Below are positions 53,442 through 64,000 of a DNA stretch of 64,000 nucleotides, one piece after another. The first letter of the stretch is position 1; each line of letters begins with the position of its first letter. Made by a program: the position numbers and the translations under genes. The DNA lies in contig CANRXB010000012.1 of the NCBI GenBank assembly GCA_947643715.1, positions 444 to 64,443 of the forward strand, given 5' to 3'. The stretch comes from an uncultured bacterium (GTDB lineage Bacteria; Bacillota; Clostridia; Oscillospirales; Oscillospiraceae). The notes below the pieces were generated by a model that saw only the letters and a program-made list of their open reading frames with translations, was not told the origin of the DNA and made no database searches.

Positions 53442-53469
53442 ATACGGACACGCCGCTTCCGCATACATT
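53442..53469 (+). promoter_or_regulatory. Mother-cell sigE-type promoter of sigK
   Basis: ATA-N17-CATACATT, matching ATA-N16/18-CATACAHT, just upstream of the GGAGG RBS. Confidence 0.7.
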
Positions 53470-53488
53470 TTCGATGGAGGTGGTATCC

Positions 53489-53685
53489 ATGTGGACGGCA
53501 TGGCTGTTATTGACATTGAACGGGTTGTTCTTCACCCTTCGTTTGGCAGGGAACACGGGTTCCTTCCCTCGGGCCCTCACCCGCGAAGAGGAGCAGGACT
53601 GCCTGCAGCGGATGGCGGAGGGCGACTCTGACGCCCGGGACATGCTCATCGAGCACAACCTGCGGCTGGTGGCTCATATCGTTAA
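53489..53685 (+). CDS. sigK: Pro-sigma-K, 5' fragment (codons 1-65) of a split gene
   Basis: Hydrophobic pro-sequence, SFPRAL, LIEHNLRLVAHIV, then a premature stop from element sequence. Confidence 0.92.
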
Positions 53686-55313
53686 AAACTGATAAAGCGG
53701 AAGGAAGCTGTTCGGCGGTCAAAAACGGCCCTCACAGGGCCGCCGCATCTCAAGTGGACGTCCAGATGGATCTCCTCTCTCGTACTGCCCTTTTTCACCA
53801 CGATATGGTCCAATATCGTGGTGACGAGGGAGGGATCGATGCCGTTTTGGAAGGTCAGTTCTCGCTCCAGGACGGCGCGGATCTCCTCCGTCCTGGCGGC
53901 GGTCCCTCTGCTCTTTTCCGCCTCCATCCGAAGCGCCGCCCGCTTTTCTTCCAAGGCTTCGGCCTGCCGGTTGAAGCTGTCGTTGCGCTGCTTGAACTCC
54001 GCCATGGTGACGATGCCTTCGATGCTCATCTCCAGCAGGCGGTCTTTTTTTGCCCGGATCGCAGCCAGGTCCTCCTCGATCCGGCGGATATCCTGGGTAT
54101 AGTCGCGCTCCTCCGGGACGGCCCGGAGAACGCTCATCACCGCGCCGATGATGGCCTGTTTGTCCTGAGCGAGCCTGTCGAAGATCTCGGCCATGATCCG
54201 ATCCAGCTCCTTGGTGCGCAGATGAGGGGCCGTACACCCCGCCCTCCCCCGGCTGCGGTACTCCCGGCATTGCCACGTCTCTGTCGTCCCTTTGGCGCTC
54301 TTGATGGCCTGCCGGTGGAACCGGGTCCCGTGCGCCTCACATACGATCTTACCGCTGTAGGGATATCGGTCATGGAACTGCGCCCCGCTCTGGTGGGACT
54401 TCATCTGCCGGCTCCTCTGTTTGTACAGCGCGTTCGCCCGGTCCCACAGCTCCTCGGACACGATCGCCGGGACGGACGGATCGGGGTACATCACCCACTC
54501 GCTCTCGTCTAGGAATACCTTCCGCTTGCTGCGGTAGTCCACCGTCTGGGACTTGTTGGCGCAGTACCAGCCCTTGTATTTGGGGTTGCACAGGATGTTC
54601 CGGATGGTCAGCACGTTGAAGGCGTTGCCCCTGCGGCTGGTGAAGCCCTCGTCCAGCAGCGTCCGGGAGATGCGCCGTATCCCCATCTGCCGGTTGGCGT
54701 AGAGGTCGAAGATCCGCCGCACCACCTGGGCCTCCTCTTCGTCGATGGTCAGCACACAGTCCTTCTTGTCATACCCCCAGATCCGGTCGTTGCCCAGCAC
54801 ATGCCCGTTCTTGATGGCCTGCCGGAAGCCGAACTTCAGCCGCTCGGACAGCTTGCGCACCTCGTCCTGGGCCACCCCGGCCATGACCACCAGGCGGAAC
54901 TCGCTGTCGCTGTCCAGGGTGTTGATGTTGTCGTTCTGGAACAGCACCCCCACGTCGTGCTCCAGCAGCTCCTGGGTGTACTTGATGCTGTCCAGGGTGG
55001 AGCGGGAAAAGCGGGATATCTCCTTCGTGATGATGAAGTCGAAGCACCCCGCTTTGGCGTCCGCTATCATCCGCAAGAAGCTGTCCCGCTTTTTGGTGCT
55101 GGTTCCGGAGATGCCCTCGTCGATGTATCCCGGCACGAATATCCAGTCGCGCTTGCTCCGGATCAGCTCGGTGTAGTATTGGACCTGGTTCCCCAGGCTG
55201 TTGATCTGCTCGTCCTTGTCGGTGGAGACCCTGGCATAGAAGGTCACCCGCAGAGGAAGCTCGAAAATGGTCCTCCCCTTCCGCAGCTCATTTCGTATCT
55301 CAAGGATATCCAC
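53682..55313 (-). CDS. Large serine recombinase (SpoIVCA-like)
   Basis: FYARVST catalytic motif, KEISRFSR, recombinase domain, Zn-ribbon CEAHG...WQC...C, coiled coil; GTG start after AGGAGG. Confidence 0.95.
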   Translation of the reverse strand: MDILEIRNELRKGRTIFELPLRVTFYARVSTDKDEQINSLGNQVQYYTELIRSKRDWIFVPGYIDEGISGTSTKKRDSFLRMIADAKAGCFDFIITKEISRFSRSTLDSIKYTQELLEHDVGVLFQNDNINTLDSDSEFRLVVMAGVAQDEVRKLSERLKFGFRQAIKNGHVLGNDRIWGYDKKDCVLTIDEEEAQVVRRIFDLYANRQMGIRRISRTLLDEGFTSRRGNAFNVLTIRNILCNPKYKGWYCANKSQTVDYRSKRKVFLDESEWVMYPDPSVPAIVSEELWDRANALYKQRSRQMKSHQSGAQFHDRYPYSGKIVCEAHGTRFHRQAIKSAKGTTETWQCREYRSRGRAGCTAPHLRTKELDRIMAEIFDRLAQDKQAIIGAVMSVLRAVPEERDYTQDIRRIEEDLAAIRAKKDRLLEMSIEGIVTMAEFKQRNDSFNRQAEALEEKRAALRMEAEKSRGTAARTEEIRAVLERELTFQNGIDPSLVTTILDHIVVKKGSTREEIHLDVHLRCGGPVRAVFDRRTASFRFISF

Positions 55314-55482
55314 CCTGCTCCGCCTCCTTCGCCGGGCACACAGGATACCGGAAAAACGCAGGGACATCCATCCCAGAACGCACCAGATCCATCGCGCCCA
55401 GATAGGTGGCCCTCGACAAAAGCCCGCGGGCGTAGAGCGCTTCCAAAAGGACGCCCATCAGCTCCTGCTGCGCACGTTCCAT
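55300..55482 (-). CDS. Small protein (60 aa) overlapping the recombinase start; candidate directionality factor
   Basis: GAGGTG RBS 7 nt upstream; overlaps the recombinase GTG; function is inference. Confidence 0.6.
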   Translation of the reverse strand: MERAQQELMGVLLEALYARGLLSRATYLGAMDLVRSGMDVPAFFRYPVCPAKEAEQGGYP

Positions 55483-55619
55483 GCTGCATCACCTCATCCA
55501 TGGATATGTGGCGGCATGAGGGAAGATTCCAGACGATCCGGGACCGATGTGAGGCGCCTCCCCGTTTCCGGGCGCATCCGACACGGCGCGCATCCCCTCG
55601 CATGACCCGAGAAGAACGA

Positions 55620-55648
55620 TTGCTATTTTAGACAGTTTCTGGTATACT
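55620..55648 (+). promoter_or_regulatory. sigA promoter of the skin cargo operon
   Basis: TTGCTA-N17-TATACT with an extended TG. Confidence 0.65.
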
Positions 55649-55698
55649 ATCATCTCCAGTGTTTATCAGGAATGACGACACGAGAAAGGAGAACGACC

Positions 55699-57756
55699 AT
55701 GGATAAAAGATTTGGACCGCTGTTCACCCCGTGGAAGATCGGAAACTGTGAGATCAAGAACCGGGTGGTGCTCACCTCTATGGGAGGCACGGACCTGCTG
55801 GGCTGGATGGAGAAGAACCATTTCGACCGGGCCGGGGCCCGATTCATCCTGGAGGCGGCCCGAAACGATGTGGGGCTGGTGCTGCCCGGCTGCCAGCCGG
55901 TGTACAACCCCATGTTCGGCCAGTGGCTGCACAAAAACAAGAAGATGTACCGGGATCTGGCCGCCTGGATGCCCGAGTTCCACAAGACCGGGGCCAAGCT
56001 GTTCGTCCAGCTCACCGCGGGCTTCGGCCGCTCCTTCACCATCAGCTCCATGATGGAGATGCTGTACACCAACCCCGCTCTGCGGGCGCTGTCCAGACCC
56101 TTCATGGATCTGGACAAGATCACCGCCACCGCCAGCCCCTCCCCCAACCGCTGGTCGGACAAGGTGCCCTCCCGCGAGATGACGGTGGCGGAGATCCGGG
56201 AGTTCGTGGACGCCTTCGCCCAGACCGCCAAGCTCCTCCAGGACGCCGGGGTGGACGGAGTGGAGGTCCACGCCGTCCACGAGGGCTACCTGCTGGACCA
56301 GTTCACCTTGAAGTATGTCAACAAGCGCACGGATCAGTACGGCGGCTCCTTCGAGAACCGCTACCGCTTCCCGGTGGAGATCGTCCAGGCCATCAAAGCG
56401 GCCTGCGGCCGGGACTTCCCCGTCTCCCTGCGGTACAGCGTGGTGTCCAAGACCAAGGGCTTCCGCCAGGGCGCCCTCCCTGGGGAGGACTTCGTGGAGG
56501 CCGGCCGTGACATGGAGGAATCGGAGCGAGCGGCGAAGTACCTCCAGGACGCGGGGTACGACATGCTCAATTGCGACAACGGCACCTACGACGCCTGGTA
56601 TTGGGCCCATCCGCCCATCTACATGCCGGAGAACTGCAACCTGGCCGACGTGGAGCACATCAAGAAGTTCGTGGACATCCCGGTGGTGTGCGCCGGGCGG
56701 CTGGATCCCCGGACGGCGGCCGAGTCCATCGAGGCGGGCAGACTGGACGGCGCGGGCTTCGCCCGGCAGTTCCTGGCCGACCCGGCCTGGGTCACCAAGC
56801 TGATGGAGGGCCGGGAGGCGGACATCCGTCCTTGCATCCTGTGCCACAACGGCTGCTTCAACATGTCCCACTACGAGGGCGTCCCCAACGACCAGGACCT
56901 GTACGACAGCCTCCACATGGCCCGGTGCGCCGTCAATGCGGAGATGATGCAGTGGGACCGGCACCATATCGACAAAGCCTTCTCCCCCAAGCGGGTACAT
57001 ATCATCGGCGGGGGCCTGGGCGGCATGGAGGCGGCCCGGGTACTGAAGCTCCGGGGCCACGAACCGATCGTCTACGAGAAGAGCGGCCGGCTGGGCGGGG
57101 CGTTCATCGCCGCCGGGGCGGAGTCCTACAAGGGCAAGCTCAGGGACCTGCTGGCCTGGTATGAACGGCAGATGGAGCAATTGGGGATCGAGATCCATCT
57201 CGGCACGGAGATCGGAGATGTGAGCCGGTTCGGGACGGATCAGGTGATCGTGGCCACCGGCGCGGCCCCCATCGTGCTCCGGGGCATCCAAGGCCACGAG
57301 CGGATGATAGAGGCCATCGACTTCCTGCTGGGGAACGAGACCGTGGGCGAGCGGGTGGCCGTCGTGGGCGGCGGGCTCACCGGCTGCGAGATCGCCTACG
57401 AGCTGGCCCTCCAGGGCAAGCATCCCGTCATCATCGAGATGAAGAACGATCTGGTGGCCCAAAAGGGCGTGTGCCTGGCCAACAGCTCCTATCTCCGGGA
57501 GTGGTTCGCCCTGCACGGCGTGCCCATCCACCTGGAGACCACCTTGACCGCTGTCCACGAGGACAAGGTGGTCTGCCGGGACAAGGACGGCAGGACGGTG
57601 GAGATCCCCTGCGACAGCGTCATCAGCTCGGTGGGCTACGTGCCCCGGCCTTTGGCGGGCAAGGGCCGCAACATCCACTTCGTGGGTGACTGCAAGCAGG
57701 TGGGCAACGTCAAGACCGTGATCTGGGGTGCCTACGAGGCGGCCATGAAGATCTGA
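55699..57756 (+). CDS. Old-yellow-enzyme class Fe-S flavoenzyme (enoate reductase / BaiCD-H-like)
   Basis: EVHAVHEGYLLDQF, YGGSFENRYRF, CILCHNGC Fe-S motif, IIGGGLGGMEAA FAD/NAD site; start set at ATG 55699. Confidence 0.9.
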   Translation: MDKRFGPLFTPWKIGNCEIKNRVVLTSMGGTDLLGWMEKNHFDRAGARFILEAARNDVGLVLPGCQPVYNPMFGQWLHKNKKMYRDLAAWMPEFHKTGAKLFVQLTAGFGRSFTISSMMEMLYTNPALRALSRPFMDLDKITATASPSPNRWSDKVPSREMTVAEIREFVDAFAQTAKLLQDAGVDGVEVHAVHEGYLLDQFTLKYVNKRTDQYGGSFENRYRFPVEIVQAIKAACGRDFPVSLRYSVVSKTKGFRQGALPGEDFVEAGRDMEESERAAKYLQDAGYDMLNCDNGTYDAWYWAHPPIYMPENCNLADVEHIKKFVDIPVVCAGRLDPRTAAESIEAGRLDGAGFARQFLADPAWVTKLMEGREADIRPCILCHNGCFNMSHYEGVPNDQDLYDSLHMARCAVNAEMMQWDRHHIDKAFSPKRVHIIGGGLGGMEAARVLKLRGHEPIVYEKSGRLGGAFIAAGAESYKGKLRDLLAWYERQMEQLGIEIHLGTEIGDVSRFGTDQVIVATGAAPIVLRGIQGHERMIEAIDFLLGNETVGERVAVVGGGLTGCEIAYELALQGKHPVIIEMKNDLVAQKGVCLANSSYLREWFALHGVPIHLETTLTAVHEDKVVCRDKDGRTVEIPCDSVISSVGYVPRPLAGKGRNIHFVGDCKQVGNVKTVIWGAYEAAMKI

Positions 57757-57766
57757 GGAGGAAGCC

Positions 57767-59050
57767 ATGAGCGTAAAGATGAAACTGACCGCCGAGCAAC
57801 AGGCCATCCTGGACGGCAGCCAGGGGGAGACGCTGGCCAAGGTGATGGAGACGCTGGTGCGCTATGGCGAGCTGTTCGGGGCGGACTCCATGGCGCCCGT
57901 CACCAGCCAGTACAACCACCTGGTCACCTCCTTCGGGCTGAAGGCCCTGGGGCCGGTGTACGATCTGATGGACAAACTGATCGCGGAGGGCGCGGCGTCC
58001 AAGCAGCCGTTCTCCGCCGACCCCCGGCCGGTGGACAAGAACGTGCCCAGCTCTTTTTTGCAGGACTTCGTGTTCCGGAACTTCATGTACACCAAGCAGG
58101 ACTTTTACGAGGACCAGCTCAGCAAGCTGGGCCTCATGGACCGGGACGCTTTCACCTGCGCCTGCTATCTGGACCAGGTGGGCAACACCCCGAAGGAGGG
58201 GGACGTCCTGTCCTGGTCGGAGTCCTCCGCCGTGGTGTATGCCAACTCGGTGCTGGGGGCCCGGTGCAACCGCAACTCGGGCATCATCGACCTGATGGGC
58301 TCGGTGGTGGGGCACGTGCCCTACTTCGGCCTGCTCACCGACGAGGGGCGCAAGGCCACCTGGATCGTGGAGGTCAAGACCACCAAGAAGCCGGAGGCCC
58401 AGCTCCTGGGCTCCGCCATCGGCATGAAGGTGATGGAGGACGTGCCCTACCTCGTGGGGCTGGACCGGTGGCTGGGGACGCTGGACGACGCGGCCAGGAC
58501 CTACCTCAAGGACTTCGGCGCGGCCACCGCCTCCAACGGCGCGGTGGGCCTGTACCATGTGGAGGGCATCACCCCGGAGGCCGTCCGGCAGGGCCGGGAG
58601 CTGGTGGCGGAGGACGCCCAGGTATATGTGGTGGACGACGCGGAGCTCCAGCGGGTATACGACAGCTACCCTGTGATGTGGAAGGACAAGGGCGCGAGAC
58701 CGAAGCTGTGCTTCATGGGCTGTCCCCACATGAGCCTGGAGCAGCTCACCACCTGGACGGAGCGGGTGGAGCAGGGCCTGAGAGATTCGGGGCGGAAAAA
58801 GGTGGCCATCCCCACCGTGTTCACCGCCGCCCCCGCGGTCATCGAGCAGTTCCAGGCCACGCCCTATGGGGAGCGGCTGAAAAAGACGGGGGTCGTGCTC
58901 AGCTACATCTGCCCGCTGATGTATATGAACAACCCCTTGAGCGGCAAGATGCCCGTCATCACCTCCAGCAACAAGCTGCGCACCTATACCACCGCAAGGT
59001 ACTACACAGACGACGAGATCCTCGTCCAGATCACGAAAGGGGGCGACTGA
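57767..59050 (+). CDS. Aconitase X catalytic subunit (DUF521)
   Basis: FTCACY, WSESSAVVYANSVLGARCNR, GAVGLYHVEGITPE, FMGCPH, ICP, TSSNKLRTY. Confidence 0.88.
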   Translation: MSVKMKLTAEQQAILDGSQGETLAKVMETLVRYGELFGADSMAPVTSQYNHLVTSFGLKALGPVYDLMDKLIAEGAASKQPFSADPRPVDKNVPSSFLQDFVFRNFMYTKQDFYEDQLSKLGLMDRDAFTCACYLDQVGNTPKEGDVLSWSESSAVVYANSVLGARCNRNSGIIDLMGSVVGHVPYFGLLTDEGRKATWIVEVKTTKKPEAQLLGSAIGMKVMEDVPYLVGLDRWLGTLDDAARTYLKDFGAATASNGAVGLYHVEGITPEAVRQGRELVAEDAQVYVVDDAELQRVYDSYPVMWKDKGARPKLCFMGCPHMSLEQLTTWTERVEQGLRDSGRKKVAIPTVFTAAPAVIEQFQATPYGERLKKTGVVLSYICPLMYMNNPLSGKMPVITSSNKLRTYTTARYYTDDEILVQITKGGD

Positions 59051-59051
59051 G

Positions 59052-59501
59052 ATGCGCCAGTTCCAAGGCCGGGTGGTATCTCCCGGCAAGCTCACCGCCA
59101 AGGCTCTGGTGTCCCACGGGGGGCTGAACACCCTGGCCTCCTTCCAGAAGGCCCTGCAGTTCGGAGACAAGAAGGCCACCTGCGGCGACCAGAACAACCC
59201 CGACCTCTACGGCAAGCAGATGGCCGGGAAGGCCCTGTGCCTGCCCCGGACCATCGGCTCCACCACCGGAGGGCTGGTGCTGTACTGCGCCTGTTCCATG
59301 GGGCGCCAGCCGGCGTGCCTGTTGTTCTCCGAGCCCATCGACTCCCTGGCGGCCGCCGGGGCGGTGCTGTCCGACGTCTGGCTGGAGGGGGAACACACCT
59401 CCATGCCGGTGGTGGACAGTCTGGGCGAGGAGTTCCTGGACTTCGTCCAGGACGGCATGACCATCAACGTCCTGTCGGACGGCGTGGTCCAGGTCATCTG
59501 A
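59052..59501 (+). CDS. Aconitase X swivel subunit (DUF126)
   Basis: GRVVSPG, MAGKALCLPRTIGSTTG, AAGAVL, MPVVD. Confidence 0.85.
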   Translation: MRQFQGRVVSPGKLTAKALVSHGGLNTLASFQKALQFGDKKATCGDQNNPDLYGKQMAGKALCLPRTIGSTTGGLVLYCACSMGRQPACLLFSEPIDSLAAAGAVLSDVWLEGEHTSMPVVDSLGEEFLDFVQDGMTINVLSDGVVQVI

Positions 59502-59513
59502 CGGAGGGCGCGC

Positions 59514-60272
59514 ATGACGATCTTATCTCGATTGAACGGCCCGGCCGTGTATGCCGTGTGCGGCGGCATCGTGGCCTTCGTGGCCGTGGTCTGCGTCGTG
59601 TTCATGGTCCGGGCCTGGCGGGCCGGCGTGGCCCTGGGCATGGACAAGACCAAGATGCGCCGGGTGGTCACCGCCAGCATCACCTTCTCCGCCCTGCCCA
59701 GCGTGGGGATCCTCTTGGGGGTCATCGCCCTGTCGGGCAGCCTGGGCACTCCCTGGCCCTGGCTGCGGCTGAGCGTGGTGGGCGCCCTCCACTACGAGAC
59801 GCAGGTGGCCCAGGCCGCCGCCGAGCAGGTGGGCATGAGCAGCCTCTCCGCCGCTGAGATGACGCCTCGGGCCTTCACCACCATCGCCCTGCTCATGAGC
59901 GTATGTATCATGTGGGGGATGCTGCTGTCCGCCCTGTTCAACAAGCGGTATCTCAAGAAGCTGGGCGCAGGCACGGGCTCCGGCGGCGGGGCCGTGGCGG
60001 GCTTCGGCGACAAGGCCATGACCGCCATGTTCATCGGCCTCATCTGCGCCTATGTGGGCAGCTATATCGGCGGCTTCGTGTCCGGGGAAGGGCCGTTCAC
60101 CTTCGCCGGGGACTGGACGCCGCTGGCAGTGGCCGGGGTGTCCGGCCTGACCATGGCCGGGTGCGTCTGGCTGTCGGAGAAAAAGGGCATGGCCTGGCTG
60201 GAGAGCTTCTCCATCGCGGGCAGCATGCTGCTGGGCATGGCCGCGGCGGTGCTGCTGCGGCTGTGGCTGTAG
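59514..60272 (+). CDS. DUF5058 family membrane protein
   Basis: LGTPWPWLRLSVVGALHYE motif; multiple TM helices. Confidence 0.8.
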   Translation: MTILSRLNGPAVYAVCGGIVAFVAVVCVVFMVRAWRAGVALGMDKTKMRRVVTASITFSALPSVGILLGVIALSGSLGTPWPWLRLSVVGALHYETQVAQAAAEQVGMSSLSAAEMTPRAFTTIALLMSVCIMWGMLLSALFNKRYLKKLGAGTGSGGGAVAGFGDKAMTAMFIGLICAYVGSYIGGFVSGEGPFTFAGDWTPLAVAGVSGLTMAGCVWLSEKKGMAWLESFSIAGSMLLGMAAAVLLRLWL

Positions 60273-60287
60273 GAAGGGGGCCATCCA

Positions 60288-60980
60288 ATGAACGAACGAG
60301 ACGGACAGGCGGCATTCGACCGCTATAACGAGCAGACCCACCTCATCGGCCAGGTGGTGAGCGTCGCCACCCTGGTCTTGCTCATCGGCGCTCCCTTCGT
60401 ACTGGGCGCCATCCTGGGCGACATGCCCGACGTCGGGGCGGTCGCCCGGAGCTTCCTCTCCGTGGGCCTGGTGTGGATGGTCAGCGGAGTGGCGGAATAC
60501 CTCATCTATACCCCTATGCTGGGGGCGGGAGGGAGCTATCTGGCCTTCATCACCGGCAACCTCATCAACATGAAGATCCCCTGCGCCATCAGCGCCCGGG
60601 ACATGGTGGGCGCCAAGACGGGGACGGCGGAGAACGAGGTGATCTCCACGCTGTCCATCGCGGCGTCCTCCCTGGTGACCATCCTGGTGCTGGCTTTGGG
60701 CGTGCTGCTGCTGGTCCCGCTCCAGCCCATCCTCCAGAGCGAGGTGCTCCAGCCCGCTTTCGCCAACGTGGTCCCCGCGCTGTTCGGGGCCATGGCATAC
60801 AAGTATTTCCGGGGGAACATGAAGATCGCCGTCACACCGCTGGTGGTCATGAGCCTGCTGTTCATGCTGGTCCCCAGCCTCACCGGGTCCACCAGCTTCA
60901 TGATCGTCCCCAGCGGAGCTATGGCCATCGCCATCACCTGGGTCCTATACCGACATGAAAGGAAGTCGAACGACAAATGA
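60288..60980 (+). CDS. Membrane protein that typically partners DUF5058 (putative transporter subunit)
   Basis: YTPMLGAGGSYLAFITGNLINMKIPCA; TM-rich. Confidence 0.75.
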   Translation: MNERDGQAAFDRYNEQTHLIGQVVSVATLVLLIGAPFVLGAILGDMPDVGAVARSFLSVGLVWMVSGVAEYLIYTPMLGAGGSYLAFITGNLINMKIPCAISARDMVGAKTGTAENEVISTLSIAASSLVTILVLALGVLLLVPLQPILQSEVLQPAFANVVPALFGAMAYKYFRGNMKIAVTPLVVMSLLFMLVPSLTGSTSFMIVPSGAMAIAITWVLYRHERKSNDK

Positions 60981-62557
60981 AGAAAAGACATAAGCGCGCG
61001 CTGGCCATACTGGCCGCAAAAAAGGCGGGGGGATATCTCCTAGACGCGGCGGTGGCCCGGAAAATGCCGCCCAAGCGGGTCGAACGGCCTGAGCCCCCCA
61101 AGCAGTGCCCCTATGCCAAAGCTGCCGCCACCGCTCTGACCGCAGTCGGGGTGGCCGCAGGAGCCGCCCTGGGCGTGGCGCTGGCCCGCACCGCCCTGAC
61201 CCCGAAGAAACGATCCGAATATGTCCCCGCCCCGGACGGCCGGGCCATGGACTATGCCCAGAAGCTGTCCGCCATGGTCCAATGCGACACGACCTCCCAC
61301 GCCGGCGTGGCGGAAACAGAAAAGTTCCTGGCCTTCCACAAGGAGCTGGAGCGGCTGTTCCCCCTGGTCCACCGGGATCTGGAAAAGACCGTCATCGACG
61401 GCAACCTGCTCTTCCGCTGGAAGGGCAGGACGGACGCGGACCCCATCGTCCTCATGAGCCACCAGGACGTGGTGCCCGCCGAGGGAGAATGGCTCCACCC
61501 GCCCTTCTCCGGCGCCATCGTGGATGGCAAGGTGTGGGGCCGGGGCGCTTTCGACACGAAAGCCTCCCTCATGGCCTTCTTCCAGGGCGTGGAGGAGCTG
61601 TTGGCCGAGGGCTATGTGCCTGAGTGCGACGTGTATCTGGCCTCCTCCTGCACCGAGGAGTGGGCGGGAGACGGGGCCCCCAAGCTGGTGGCCGAGCTCC
61701 AGCGCCGGAACGTGCGTCCCTTCCTGGTCATCGACGAGGGCGGCGGCGTGATCACCGACCCCATCGGCGGCGTCAAGGGCAATTTCGCCATGGTGGGCGT
61801 GTTCGAGAAGGGCAAGGCGGACGTGCGCTTCACCGCCCGCAGCTCCGGCGGACACGCCAGCGCCCCAGGCAAGGGCACCCCCATCGCCCGGCTGTCGGCT
61901 TTCGTCAACGAGATGGAGACCAAGCCCCCCTTCCGGAAGAAGCTCCTGCCGGAAGTGAAGGCCATGTTCAGGCGCCTGTCCCCCTACGCCCCCTTCCACC
62001 TGCGGCTGGTGATGGGCAACCTGTGGCTGTTCGGCCCGGTGATGAAGAAGGTCATGCCTGCCGTCTCCGCCCAAGCCGCGGCCATGCTCCAGACCACCAT
62101 CGCCTTCACCATGCAGTCCGGGTCCGACGCCTGCAACGTCTTGCCCCAGCAGGCCAGCGTCAGCGCCAATATGCGTTTCATCCCTCACCAGGGGGAGCGG
62201 GAGAGCCTGGACCTGGTCCGGGAACGGGCGGCGAAATACGGCTTGGAGATGGAGATCATGCACTCCAGCGACTACACCAGGCCCGTGGACATCAAGGGCA
62301 AGGCGTTCCGCCAGGTGGAGCAGGTCATCGAGGCCACCTTCCCCGGACTGCCGGTGTGTCCTTACGTGATGACCGGCGCCACCGACGCCAGCTTCTATCA
62401 GGCCATCTGTGACGATTGCGTCCGCTTCGCCCCGGTCGTGGCCGGGCCGGAGCAGATGAAGGGGATGCACGGCCTGAACGAGACCATGGGCGTGGATTGT
62501 CTGCCCAAAGCGGTCGATTTCTATAAGGACCTGATCCGCGCCCAGGAGAGACGGTGA
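60977..62557 (+). CDS. M20/M25/M40 family metallo-peptidase/amidohydrolase with N-terminal basic extension and TM anchor
   Basis: SHQDVVP, GRGAFDTK, CTEEW, IDEGG, GGHAS, HGLNE. Confidence 0.9.
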   Translation: MKKRHKRALAILAAKKAGGYLLDAAVARKMPPKRVERPEPPKQCPYAKAAATALTAVGVAAGAALGVALARTALTPKKRSEYVPAPDGRAMDYAQKLSAMVQCDTTSHAGVAETEKFLAFHKELERLFPLVHRDLEKTVIDGNLLFRWKGRTDADPIVLMSHQDVVPAEGEWLHPPFSGAIVDGKVWGRGAFDTKASLMAFFQGVEELLAEGYVPECDVYLASSCTEEWAGDGAPKLVAELQRRNVRPFLVIDEGGGVITDPIGGVKGNFAMVGVFEKGKADVRFTARSSGGHASAPGKGTPIARLSAFVNEMETKPPFRKKLLPEVKAMFRRLSPYAPFHLRLVMGNLWLFGPVMKKVMPAVSAQAAAMLQTTIAFTMQSGSDACNVLPQQASVSANMRFIPHQGERESLDLVRERAAKYGLEMEIMHSSDYTRPVDIKGKAFRQVEQVIEATFPGLPVCPYVMTGATDASFYQAICDDCVRFAPVVAGPEQMKGMHGLNETMGVDCLPKAVDFYKDLIRAQERR

Positions 62558-62587
62558 GCGCTCCGGCATAGGTCCGCGCGGACACAA

Positions 62588-62637
62588 GGGCTCATACCAC
62601 GATCGTTCGCAGCCCTAAACGATCGCGGTATGAGCCC
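62588..62637. other. Long hairpin near the right end of element 1
   Basis: 20-bp arms with one mismatch (GGGCTCATACC[A/G]CGATCGTT), 10-nt loop, no U tract. Confidence 0.6.
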
Positions 62638-62734
62638 TAATCTGTGTGGCGTATCAAAGATGGCGCATACGATCCGGTGGTCCCTGAGAGGCCGCTTTCG
62701 ACCAGGAAACATCTTCCCTTTGCTTCACCCGTCT

Positions 62735-62872
62735 AAGAAGTATTATACCCCCAACGGCGACCAGGACGATCTAATCTCTATCGGGACCATCGGCCTGATC
62801 AAAGGCGTGTCCACGTTCAAGGCAGATAAAAACGTGCGGCTCGCCACCTATGCCAGCCGGTGCATCGAGAAT
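62735..62872 (+). CDS. sigK: Sigma-K, middle fragment (46 codons, region 2) of a split gene
   Basis: KKYYTPNGDQDDLISIGTIGLIKGVSTFKADKNVRLATYASRCIEN, then TIHSQ instead of the expected EILM. Confidence 0.92.
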
Positions 62873-62967
62873 ACTATCCACTCGCAACGGCTCAAAAGGC
62901 CCTTGATGTGGGCAATCGTACATACTTTGGCGAAAAATGGCGTACGTTCGGCCACACATCGGACCGC

Positions 62968-63486
62968 ATGAAAATAATGGTCCTCCATACTCCCACGGGC
63001 GTTATCTACGCACCTCTTTACATTCACAGTTTCCAGCTTGTCCAACCTCACACGCTGGTGGAGGCGGAAAAGTTCAACATCCAATACACCGATCCCTCTC
63101 AAATCCACAATACGCCGGACAAGCTCCGCTGGTACAGATACAGCCAGGGTTTGCGGCAAAAGGATGTGGCGAAGTACGCTGGGATAGACCGCACCACATA
63201 CTCCAGCTATGAAGAAATTGGGCGGGACTATTATCCCATTGAAACCATGCGGAAAATTGCGGAGCTGTTCTCCGTCCCTGTCACAAGGCTCCTGGATGAT
63301 TTCAACCTGTTTCTCTATCACGGCCAGGGCCAGCAAATCAGGCAGGCCCGAGCACAGAAAAGCATGACACAAAAAGAGTACGCAAAATACCTTGGCGTCC
63401 CGTTTGGAACCTTGCAGCAATGGGAACAGGAGCAGAAAGCAGTATCCAAAAGCGCTTGGAAAAGTCTAAATGGGTTTAAGGAATAA
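62968..63486 (+). CDS. XRE-family regulator with two HTH domains
   Basis: LRQKDVAKYAGIDRTTYSSYE and MTQKEYAKYLGVPFGTLQQWE; ATG 62968 overlaps the stop of the interrupted sigK frame (ATGA). Confidence 0.8.
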   Translation: MKIMVLHTPTGVIYAPLYIHSFQLVQPHTLVEAEKFNIQYTDPSQIHNTPDKLRWYRYSQGLRQKDVAKYAGIDRTTYSSYEEIGRDYYPIETMRKIAELFSVPVTRLLDDFNLFLYHGQGQQIRQARAQKSMTQKEYAKYLGVPFGTLQQWEQEQKAVSKSAWKSLNGFKE

Positions 63487-63507
63487 TTGTGGCCCTTGTT
63501 TCAAAAA

Positions 63508-63546
63508 GGAAGCCGTCAAATCACTCGTGGATTTGGCGGCTTCCCT
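63508..63546. terminator. Terminator between convergent element genes
   Basis: GGAAGCCGTCAAATC/GATTTGGCGGCTTCC stem with an A run on the left. Confidence 0.7.
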
Positions 63547-63573
63547 TGATGTATTTCAAATTAGCCAGATCAC

Positions 63574-63918
63574 TTAGAATCTCAGCGGTGCTTCATTTGA
63601 GCATAAGATATGCCCATCTTTCTGTGATAAAACTTTTTGATTAGCCACCACCCTTACACACATTAGCAAATCATCAATGTTCTTCGGTCTTGCGGAACAC
63701 CTTTTTGCCAACTTTTTAGCAAGTTGACGTTTCACATCGTCTACACCTCTCGGAACTTCCTGCCGACCTGAACTCACAATATAAGCATCCAAAATTTGAA
63801 GATTTTTCAATAGGAAAGAAACCATTTCATTACCTTCGATATTCTTCAAAGTTTCCTCAATTTGTTCATAAGCCCTTTTTATTACAGTTCCTTTTAGTTC
63901 AATTAAATGGCATTTCAT
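63574..63918 (-). CDS. Hypothetical protein (114 aa), AT-rich
   Basis: Only sizeable ORF in the AT-rich end; no family recognised; start uncertain. Confidence 0.45.
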   Translation of the reverse strand: MKCHLIELKGTVIKRAYEQIEETLKNIEGNEMVSFLLKNLQILDAYIVSSGRQEVPRGVDDVKRQLAKKLAKRCSARPKNIDDLLMCVRVVANQKVLSQKDGHILCSNEAPLRF

Positions 63919-64000
63919 GTTGATTTCATCATAGCAAAGAAAATCACACTTTTTTATCCCTTCCCGAACATTTGGTATAATACCACGATCAACAGTGACA

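Follow-up and report, generated by a model that had tools for sequence, protein, structure and literature searches.

Two unrelated serine recombinase elements divide the sigK gene of an uncultured Oscillospiraceae bacterium into three pieces

The window analysed here, a stretch of 64,000 nucleotides, lies on contig C12 of a 93-contig, metagenome-type assembly and holds part of the sporulation sigma factor gene sigK. The gene is present as three non-overlapping pieces, of which codons 1-66 and 66-111 are located in the window and codons 112-229 on contig C65. A sequence-only reading of the window had placed regions 3-4 of the sigma factor beyond its end, and the 3′ piece, beginning with EILM, was indeed found on C65. 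The pieces and the signals preceding them are as follows.

53442..53469, + strand: candidate sigma-E-type promoter of sigK (ATA at 53442-44, 17 nt, CATACATT at 53462-69)
53476-53482: ribosome-binding site GGAGGTG
53489..53685, + strand: sigK fragment 1, with its ATG at 53489; pro-sequence, region 1.2 and start of region 2 (MWTAWLLL...NLRLVAHIVK)
62737..62871, + strand: sigK fragment 2; region 2, with a Pfam Sigma70_r2 match
Contig C65, 12396..11995, - strand: sigK 3′ piece (EILMYFRSQRK...EYERN, then stop)

Fragment 1 matches the rebuilt SigK with an E value of 3e-42 and is 81-85% identical in nucleotide sequence to the sigK genes of congeners; joined to fragment 2, it gives 111 codons in frame. 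The three pieces, none of which contains a stop codon or a frameshift, are exactly complementary, and deletion of both elements in silico yields a pro-sigma-K of 229 amino acids that is 94% identical to the intact orthologue of the congener G015 over residues 1-233, with no gaps and no stops. Both elements are thus interruptions of a gene that is otherwise colinear with intact orthologues, and the earlier claim that two separate elements split sigK, with its pieces and junctions, was borne out. Against the NCBIfam models, the rebuilt protein scored 264.4 bits for NF004471 (SigK subfamily), above the cut-off of 252, and 255 for TIGR02846 (SigK equivalog), below the cut-off of 298.65; its SigK score exceeds its SigE score (208). 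An intact sigK elsewhere had been named as an observation that would speak against the split gene; no second, intact copy was found in this assembly, which is 96% complete, and none of its contigs carries fragments 1 and 2, or 2 and 3, in joined form. Spo0A, SpoIVA, SpoIIID, sigE and sigG are all intact in the genome. The layout of the candidate sigK promoter resembles the upstream regions of spoIIID (TCATATC-N14-CATATACAT) and spoIVA (TCATATT-N14-CATAGAAAT) of the same genome, and it fits the published mother-cell promoter consensus ATA/CATA (PMC3789822).

The first interruption, at the junction AHIVK/KYY (site 1), comprises the following features.

53686..62736: element 1, 9,051 bp, interrupting sigK; phage genes absent; GC 58-69%, host-like
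53684..53685: attL1 central dinucleotide AA, the predicted crossover point
53682..55313, - strand: large serine recombinase 1 (543 aa), which starts with GTG and has its stop codon within attL1
55300..55482, - strand: gene for a 60-aa protein, overlapping the start of recombinase 1 by 14 nt; candidate recombination directionality factor (RDF)
55508-55500 and 55495-55489, - strand: CATATCCAT box, a candidate mother-cell -10 element, and ribosome-binding site GAGGTGA, upstream of the 60-aa gene
55672..62557, + strand: cargo operon of six genes (assigned with Pfam), listed in the next six lines
55672-57756, + strand: OYE/pyridine-nucleotide oxidoreductase
57767-59050, + strand: AcnX
59052-59501, + strand: AcnX swivel
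59514-60272, + strand: DUF5058
60288-60980, + strand: membrane protein
60977-62557, + strand: M20 peptidase
62735..62736: attR1 central dinucleotide AA

Element 1 thus contains eight genes by Pfam annotation, namely those for the recombinase and the 60-aa protein and six with metabolic or membrane functions. No phage structural, lysis or replication genes and no transfer genes were found in it, and it is therefore not a skin element of the prophage type. Recombinase 1 is intact, with the domains Resolvase (PF00239), Recombinase (PF07508) and Zn_ribbon_recom (PF13408), the serine motif YARVSTD and a match to the PHROG 95 integrase family (3e-113); these features assign it to the large serine recombinase family, and gene callers predicted the identical 543-aa product in other assemblies. 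The 60-aa gene has counterparts, 33-65% identical, at the equivalent position of at least 57 related loci, and its product has no matches in Pfam, NCBIfam or PHROG. To our knowledge, RDFs share no common family, so that the missing match to known RDFs is weak evidence either way. The CATATCCAT box and the ribosome-binding site are kept across 54 distinct upstream regions, the flanks of which are otherwise unconserved. The box is similar to the candidate promoters of spoIIID and spoIVA in this genome; the -35 part matches only partially, with ATT instead of ATA. The element family that uses site 1 is very large, with at least 578 relatives in species-representative genomes, and among the best 80 relatives of recombinase 1 in such genomes, 71 adjoin a sigK piece at site 1. 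In this element family, the module of recombinase, small partner gene and promoter is conserved and the cargo is freely exchanged. AcnX is missing in 15 congeners, and an 80% identical copy is found in another family.

The second interruption, at the junction CIEN/EILM (site 2), which we take to be the position of skin in Bacillus subtilis, is mostly outside the assembly. The part in the window contains the following features.

62870..62871: attL2 central dinucleotide AA, within GAG AAT (CIEN/EILM)
62872..64000: element 2, left part, cut off by the contig end at window position 64138; GC drops from 55% to 37%
62968..63486, + strand: twin-HTH (XRE-type) regulator, with two Pfam HTH_3 matches and matches to PHROG repressor families
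63577..64000, continuing to 64119, - strand: gene for a 180-aa protein

The ATG of the HTH regulator overlaps the TGA that closes the run-on sigK frame, and the 180-aa gene is preceded in other assemblies by a gene for an AriA-like AAA ATPase (PADLOC AriA, 2e-33). The far end of element 2, on C65, encodes the last 56 amino acids of recombinase 2 and ends at attR2, adjoining the sigK 3′ piece. A second recombinase had been expected downstream, and it is these 56 residues that were found, the rest of the protein lying outside the assembly. They are 86% identical to the C-terminus of a 589-aa recombinase that adjoins the sigK 3′ piece in the congener G021. Recombinases 1 and 2, both large serine recombinases, are only about 24% identical, in agreement with the earlier proposal of two recombinases acting at two att sites. 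The recombinase-2 genes of relatives have sigma-A-like extended -10 boxes and no CATA boxes, and no candidate directionality factor was seen in the assembled part of element 2.

Over its first 573 nt, element 2 shares 96.7% identity with the left end of the site-2 element (45 kb) in G021, whereas the sigK sequence flanking it is only 81-87% identical between the two genomes, which suggests recent horizontal movement of element 2. Overall, the G021 element has almost no counterpart in this bin, and a junction resembling an att site inside element 2 suggests that it is composite. In at least one related genome, L034, the left end of the element is degraded, with the HTH gene gone and the 180-aa gene reduced by half; therefore, some such insertions may be stuck. 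Further searches for the missing sequence found no contig in the genome that overlaps the ends of C12 or C65, and an exact look-up of the 180-aa gene returned only contigs of up to 2.8 kb. This strain's recombinase-2 C-terminus is absent among the 120 best recombinase-2 homologues (the best agreeing at 50 of 56 residues). One sequence, L107, was considered a candidate for the attP junction of a circularised element 2 and was rejected, its outer arm differing from the P arm at attR2.

The att sites of the two elements share a common architecture. In the predicted attP1, 16 of 24 arm positions are symmetric about the central AA, a value not reached in 2,000 shuffles (best 15; 99th percentile 13), and in the predicted attP2 the number is 18 of 24. 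attL2 reads ...TGCATCGAGAA/T-ACTATCC and attR2 reads ...GCAAA/T-GAGATCCTCATG. Both predicted attP sites are thus quasi-palindromes, with a short shared core and imperfect inverted repeats. Element 1, originally given as about 9.05 kb, measures 9,051 bp (53686-62736); its core had been read as TAA, and the centre of symmetry is instead AA. A crossover at the palindromic TA was proposed for site 1 to explain why the recombinase is found at either end of the element, and was rejected, since TA is missing from some attR sites (gtccAAgaag) and the arm symmetry is centred on AA.

How common are these interruptions? Among the congeners, sigK is intact in 12, which provide empty target sites (attB) at both positions, split at site 1 in six and split at site 2 in two, at identical codons throughout. 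The site-1 elements of congeners with both ends on one contig measure 5.2, 7.2 and 36.8 kb, and the one complete site-2 element is that of 45 kb. The survey of relatives called for by the sequence-only reading showed that the double split recurs: it is present in 15 of 50 assessable site-1-split sigK genes of other species, belonging to several genera and including two cultured isolates, Zongyangia hominis NSJ-54 and Intestinimonas aquisgranensis CLA-AA-H199. In Z. hominis NSJ-54, a single contig carries the three sigK pieces together with both recombinases, and excision in silico restores ...CIENEILM.... A chance origin of the two junctions is excluded on these comparative grounds, because the two recur at identical codons across many further genomes. 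All 16 middle fragments examined from doubly split genes are open and of equal length, with a mean pN of 0.18 versus a pS of 0.70; this ratio points to constraint, but the insertions may be recent, independent events, so that it is no proof of selection acting once the gene had been split. The junctions in our window are reproduced by three independent assemblies at 99.2-99.7% identity, which come from mouse-gut samples (ERZ14651025, SRR32497469 and GCA_949742705.1) and one of which (L115) spans attL1 and two of which (L116 and L117) span attR1, fragment 2 and attL2. Synteny gave no support for a link between C12 and C65 and is uninformative in this respect, because the sequences flanking sigK vary among congeners.

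We consider it probable that these two unrelated large serine recombinase elements must both be deleted in the mother cell before pro-sigma-K can be made. The indications that they excise are indirect, consisting of the quasi-palindromic att sites with their AA cores, the intact recombinase 1, the conserved promoter of mother-cell type and the intact core sporulation genes. Under this model, the chromosome bound for the spore would retain both elements. Transcription of sigK fragment 1 in the mother cell would start from the sigma-E-type promoter, and recombinase 1, presumably together with the 60-aa protein, would join attL1 and attR1 at the AA core and release a circle of 9,051 bp. Recombinase 2 would act likewise on attL2 and attR2, and the pro-sigma-K gene of 229 codons would arise only after both deletions, in whichever order these took place.

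Could the gene simply be dead? One explanation is that the double interruption is real but that at least one element is unable to excise, so that sigK is lost, sporulation is incomplete and the intact appearance of the pieces reflects a recent event. This reading draws on the 56 assembled residues of recombinase 2, the composite or rearranged look of element 2 and the degraded left end in L034. Moreover, no intact sigK of this species occurs among 5.8 billion protein clusters, in which the best full-length matches are 92-94% identical, and no joined (excised) form was found in public protein clusters. We nevertheless regard it as unlikely. First, the three pieces carry no stops or frameshifts and the 16 middle fragments are open, with the low pN noted above. 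Second, recombinase 1, its partner gene, both att sites and the core sporulation genes are intact. Third, the same double layout in 15 other species of several genera is hard to square with repeated recent gene death.

A different question is whether the double split was itself selected. The sequence-only reading proposed a purpose-built two-step developmental gate, and this part of it did not hold. Counts in the genus of six genomes with site 1 only, two with site 2 only, one with both and 12 with neither agree with independent occupancy, under which about 1.0 double would be expected, and the excisions would be independent and possible in either order. Because the counts match independent occupancy, two element families that are common and share sigK as their target seem to have produced the double split as a side effect. 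The outcome is an AND condition, which is not necessarily a new regulatory layer. A stronger version holds that double interruption is a common, stable and selected state in gut Oscillospiraceae, an AND gate of two modules of recombinase and directionality factor that respond to different signals, element 1 contributing a sigma-E-type operon and element 2 a module controlled by a repressor. We think this rather unlikely. If it were true, the late mother-cell programme would hinge on two DNA rearrangements, and essential excision would secure the vertical inheritance of the elements, with metabolic and defence cargo aboard.

It is also conceivable, and in our view distinctly improbable, that both are ordinary integrative elements for which sigK is merely a convenient, conserved attB, that they excise for transfer or under stress, and that only cells that have lost both sporulate. 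The sigma-A-like boxes of the recombinase-2 genes in relatives would suit such a view, as would the phage-type repressor and defence-like ATPase of element 2, its signs of recent horizontal transfer and the precedent of C. difficile, in which development controls the RDF alone and the recombinase is expressed constitutively (PMC5025042). It is opposed by the conserved CATA-type box upstream of the operon of the 60-aa gene and recombinase 1, by the lack of transfer, replication or phage genes in element 1 and by the fact that every experimentally studied sigK-intervening element excises in the mother cell (PMC6957869, PMC5025042). That two singly inserted strains were merged through the common 135-nt middle fragment is hardly credible: the assembly is of the metagenome type with 93 contigs, a read pair is longer than the middle fragment and contigs break inside element 2, but in L116 and L117, which stem from a different MAG and a Logan run, one contig at 99.5-99.7% identity runs through attR1, fragment 2 and attL2, no contig of the genome joins neighbouring fragments and cultured Z. 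hominis has the same layout on a single contig.

Among developmental DNA rearrangements in bacteria, the programmed loss of a single element from sigK is a textbook example. Our analysis indicates that one gene can host two such elements with two unrelated recombinases, and that this state recurs among site-1-split species representatives, the two cultured isolates among them being open to direct testing. Such genomes offer a natural system for studying the coordination of two site-specific deletions in one cell and a source of orthogonal pairs of serine integrases and candidate RDFs. If excision occurs as proposed, genes of accessory metabolism, here the AcnX/OYE/M20 operon that congeners lack, can travel on elements that the mother cell discards and the germ line retains.

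The arrangement can be compared with several known systems. Like the skin element of B. subtilis, which is served by SpoIVCA and Skr, the present elements target sigK and have a short shared core with imperfect inverted repeats, and the overlap of the 60-aa gene with recombinase 1 parallels that between skr and the spoIVCA 5′ end (PMC6957869). Skin is, however, a single defective prophage of 48 kb, whereas two elements are present here, of which element 1 lies at codon ~66, is free of phage genes and carries a metabolic operon. skinCd of C. difficile (with the large serine recombinase CD1231 and the RDF CD1234), skinCt and PhiS63 of C. perfringens are likewise sigK-intervening elements of the large serine recombinase type, but they insert near nucleotide 427 of sigK (PMC3442830), which differs from both sites here; site 1 (AHIVK/KYY), which matches neither of the two published positions, is a third sigK target site. 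The sigma-K of C. difficile also lacks the pro-sequence that is kept here. In skinCd, the RDF is under sigma-E/SpoIIID control, which provides the mother-cell specificity, and the recombinase can be constitutive (PMC5025042); by analogy, element 2 could plausibly work in this way, with a constitutive recombinase and a developmental RDF. Element 1 is best compared with gin in gerE of Bacillus cereus ATCC 10987 (PMC5595907), a small, non-prophage element with a recombinase and a small helper that is excised during sporulation, although its target gene and recombinase family are different and it has no metabolic cargo operon. Galperin et al. (2022; bioRxiv 10.1101/2022.02.25.481979) noted of 15 skin elements of 2.6-48 kb that their orientation varies and that a spoIVCA-like gene always at the edge is all that they have in common, which holds here too; the accessible part of that preprint describes single interruptions only (spoIVCB plus spoIIIC) and makes no mention of a three-piece sigK. 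Our literature search likewise found no description of a doubly split sigK. With NCBIfam XisF, both recombinases gave matches (1e-27 and 6e-38) that are below the cut-off and do not place them in this equivalog. The nif and hup elements of heterocyst-forming cyanobacteria (XisA, XisC, XisF) belong to another phylum, another developmental programme and other target genes, yet they too are excised during development in a terminally differentiated cell, as we propose for sigK. In some of these cyanobacterial strains, single genes such as nifD or nifH hold more than one element.

How complete is the sigK gene that these elements divide? In the genome that holds the window (C12:444-64443; 2.63 Mb in 93 contigs, 96% complete), fragment 1 opens with an ATG at 53489 behind a good ribosome-binding site (GGAGGTG, 53476-82), reads MWTAWLLLTLNGLFFTLRLAGNTGSFPRALTREEEQDCLQRMAEGDSDARDMLIEHNLRLVAHIVK and hits a stop after one foreign codon. 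The sigK frame appears again from 62735 as fragment 2, with a Pfam Sigma70_r2 match, and after CIEN it leaves sigK for low-GC DNA. A sequence-only reading of the window had proposed that two elements split sigK and that a 3′ fragment, starting EILM-like, lies beyond the window. A tblastn search of the whole assembly with B. subtilis SigK as the query recovered this third piece on contig C65 (12396..11995, minus strand), where it opens precisely with EILMYFRSQRK and closes with ...EYERN and the stop codon, followed by a terminator hairpin. An intact sigK elsewhere, which would speak against this arrangement, was not found: the search returned no second copy in the 96%-complete assembly, in which the remaining sigma genes found are sigE and sigG (contig C25), one resembling sigF, sigA, and others that are more distantly related.

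When 53686-62736 was deleted and position 62871 was joined to the first base past the AA core on C65, an open 229-codon gene resulted. The rebuilt protein, which retains the pro-sequence, exceeds the NCBIfam SigK subfamily cut-off, scores higher as SigK than as SigE, and is 94% identical over its full length to the uninterrupted sigK product of a congener (G015). The three pieces fit together without overlap or gap, as expected of a true split gene rather than of relics beside a healed copy. No intact sigK of the source species was found among public protein clusters, in which the best matches are 92-94% identical; this lack fits a split germ-line state and is no proof of repair.

An assembly artefact was ruled out, because independent contigs span the same junctions. 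The right end of element 1 (attR1), fragment 2 and the left end of element 2 (attL2) are spanned both by a contig of another MAG (GCA_949742705.1, 99.74% identity) and by a Logan contig (SRR32497469, 99.53%), and a 13.5-kb ENA contig covers fragment 1, attL1 and the recombinase.

The first element, inserted at AHIVK/KYY (site 1), consists of the following features.

53686-62736: element 1, 9,051 bp
Left edge of element 1, minus strand: recombinase 1, a 543-aa large serine recombinase (LSR) with Resolvase, Recombinase and zinc-ribbon domains
55300-55482, directly upstream of recombinase 1: a 60-aa gene, overlapping the GTG start of recombinase 1 by 14 nt
Remainder of element 1, plus strand: an operon encoding an OYE-type flavin oxidoreductase, the two AcnX subunits (large and swivel), DUF5058, a membrane protein and an M20 peptidase

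The stop codon of recombinase 1 sits within the att site. The GC content of the element resembles that of the host, and a Pfam search detected no phage genes in it. Because AcnX is missing from 15 congeners and an 80% identical copy occurs in a genome of another family, we regard the AcnX operon as accessory cargo. The predicted circle junction of element 1 forms a quasi-palindrome around AA, with an arm symmetry of 16/24 (best of 2,000 shuffles, 15). In one congener (G016:C45, L013, 3931-7130), the element at site 1 is 5.2 kb long and encodes a 4Fe-4S membrane protein together with a TlpA-like thioredoxin lipoprotein and a YaaH/SleL-type (spore-cortex) LysM-LysM-GH18 protein, so that part of the cargo is itself linked to sporulation.

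Upstream of fragment 1 we observed ATA-17 nt-CATACATT, which matches the mother-cell promoter consensus (ATA at -35 for sigma-E and a CATA-type -10; PMC3789822) and also the upstream regions of spoIIID (TCATATC-N14-CATATACAT) and spoIVA (TCATATT-N14-CATAGAAAT) in the same genome, where Spo0A, SpoIVA and SpoIIID are intact. The 60-aa gene recurs in at least 57 related loci at 33-65% identity, overlapping the recombinase start in all of them, and its product has the motif ...ESAQRELxSVLL...GLIS..TY..A.DLVHS..DFP.LF.YPVC.... Its upstream region is conserved in three features only: first a hairpin and its T-run (GGCATTTTTT), then, after 13-14 nt, a CATATCCAT(G/A)A box, and finally a ribosome-binding site (GAGGTGAT). 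We read this region as a candidate sigma-E/sigma-K-type promoter, with a -35 GCATTTT that matches kmATAxx at 6/7 positions. The recombinase-2 genes of relatives have sigma-A-like extended -10 boxes rather than the CATA-type box. A constitutive recombinase combined with a developmental recombination directionality factor (RDF), as in the C. difficile model, would be compatible with this; no RDF for recombinase 2 was identified.

Element 2 starts at 62872 with the junction GAG-AA/T in ...CIEN/EILM... (site 2), the position known for the B. subtilis skin. Two of its genes are visible, a repressor-like one with a twin HTH and one of 180 aa, and the contig ends 138 nt beyond the window (64138). At the far side, on C65, the 158 nt directly ahead of the sigK 3′ piece encode 56 residues ending in an in-frame stop at the junction; these share 86% identity with the C-terminal end of the 589-aa LSR that the congener G021 has at this place. 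The C-terminal end of the second recombinase that had been sought was thus located, and the G021 enzyme is only ~24% identical to recombinase 1. For attP2, the prediction gives symmetry at 18/24 arm positions around AA. The remainder of element 2 was not found in the assembly. Its first 573 nt are 96.7% identical to the G021 element, compared with 81-87% for the adjoining sigK DNA, which points to recent horizontal spread. Past CIEN, the sigK frame continues for 32 codons into element 2, where its TGA (62969-71) overlaps the twin-HTH ATG (62968) as ATGA; translation of partial sigK could therefore be coupled to the element 2 regulator. This left end is also present in G021.

Mouse-gut contigs that are 100% identical across the 180-aa gene run on into an AriA-like AAA ATPase (437 aa; PADLOC AriA, 2e-33), with an att-like junction (GAAATATGCACAGAA/AA/TACTATCC...) ~200 nt past it and then a 99.5%-identical copy of the element 2 left arm and HTH gene. 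Among the loci concerned (L107-L114), one Logan contig (L107) is self-closing and circularly permuted with a period of ~2,755 bp, and another contig (L108) ends precisely at the attL2 core. Judged from these contigs, element 2 seems to be composite: the repeated cassette could be a tandem satellite ahead of the recombinase-bearing element, or it could be a small circle (mini-circle). A related doubly split genome (L034, 11797-12120) has a degraded left end of element 2, which lacks the HTH gene and retains no more of the 180-aa gene than its 3′ half, with high-GC metabolic genes behind it; that element may be immobilised and its sigK permanently broken.

In the 21 scanned genomes of the genus that allow sigK to be scored, the gene is intact in 12, split at site 1 only in six, at site 2 only in two, and at both sites in one, the source genome. 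The junction sequences of the congeners match base for base. Site-1 elements with both ends on one contig measure 5.2, 7.2 and 36.8 kb, and the complete site-2 element measures 45 kb. Independence predicts 7/21 x 3/21 x 21 = ~1.0 doubly split genomes, and one was observed. The proposal that the double split forms a dedicated two-step developmental gate lacks specific support; double occupancy in the genus is as frequent as expected of two independent, common sigK-targeting families. The largest elements (G002:C81, L015/L016, 36.8 kb, site 1; G021:C5, L017-L019, 45 kb, site 2) have related recombinase modules and almost wholly different content; the recombination unit appears to have been exchanged between very different cargoes. 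The neighbours of sigK also differ among congeners (L001-L014), and homology extends only from ~35 nt upstream of the start to just past the stop. This confinement to the edges of sigK (~53440; C65) places the locus in a highly rearranged region.

When one genome per prokaryote species was scanned, recombinase 1 proved to have at least 578 relatives, distributed over Oscillibacter, Flintibacter, Pseudoflavonifractor, Intestinimonas, Clostridium leptum, Faecousia, Zongyangia and others. In 71 of the best 80 of these loci, a sigK piece abuts the recombinase 3′ end at site 1, either the 5′ piece (convergent, 28) or the downstream piece (co-directional, 43). The two placements (L025-L104) are interleaved at 75-81% protein identity, and under both the core-proximal att arms hold the same polarity to sigK, with the interior flipped. 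Fifty loci show the middle part of sigK; 35 read on through ...CIENEI/V..., and 15 break after CIEN/K exactly as in the source genome. One of the 15, Zongyangia hominis NSJ-54, shows on a single contig, in this order, the 5′ piece, element 1 (5.3 kb; recombinase, 60-aa gene, thioredoxin-fold and HD-domain cargo), the middle piece, element 2 (3.7 kb; SufC/SufBD-like cargo and a recombinase-2 relative, 49% identity) and the 3′ piece; once joined in silico at the AA cores, the pieces again read IIKKYY and CIENEILM. Another is Intestinimonas aquisgranensis CLA-AA-H199, and with two cultured isolates the double split is directly testable. The source genome has roughly ten more LSR genes (contigs C8, C20, C10, C1, C43 and C47), three of them clustered on C8.

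With three complementary pieces, independent contigs across the junctions and 15 of 50 loci alike, the double split of sigK is correct, robust and recurrent. In the best-supported explanation, for which we infer excision, two independent LSR excisions, both required, would rebuild the gene. The arrangement of the 60-aa gene and recombinase 1 mirrors that of skr-spoIVCA in B. subtilis (PMC6957869), and CD1234 of C. difficile (PMC5025042) is a proposed functional parallel for the 60-aa gene. Published sigK insertion positions comprise one in B. subtilis and one common to skinCd, skinCt and PhiS63, near nucleotide 427 (PMC3442830); site 1, at nucleotide 197, differs from both. Galperin et al., who surveyed 15 skin elements, describe two-piece genes only. 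No account of a three-piece sigK turned up in a full-text literature search. Several elements within one developmental gene are familiar from the nif genes of heterocysts.
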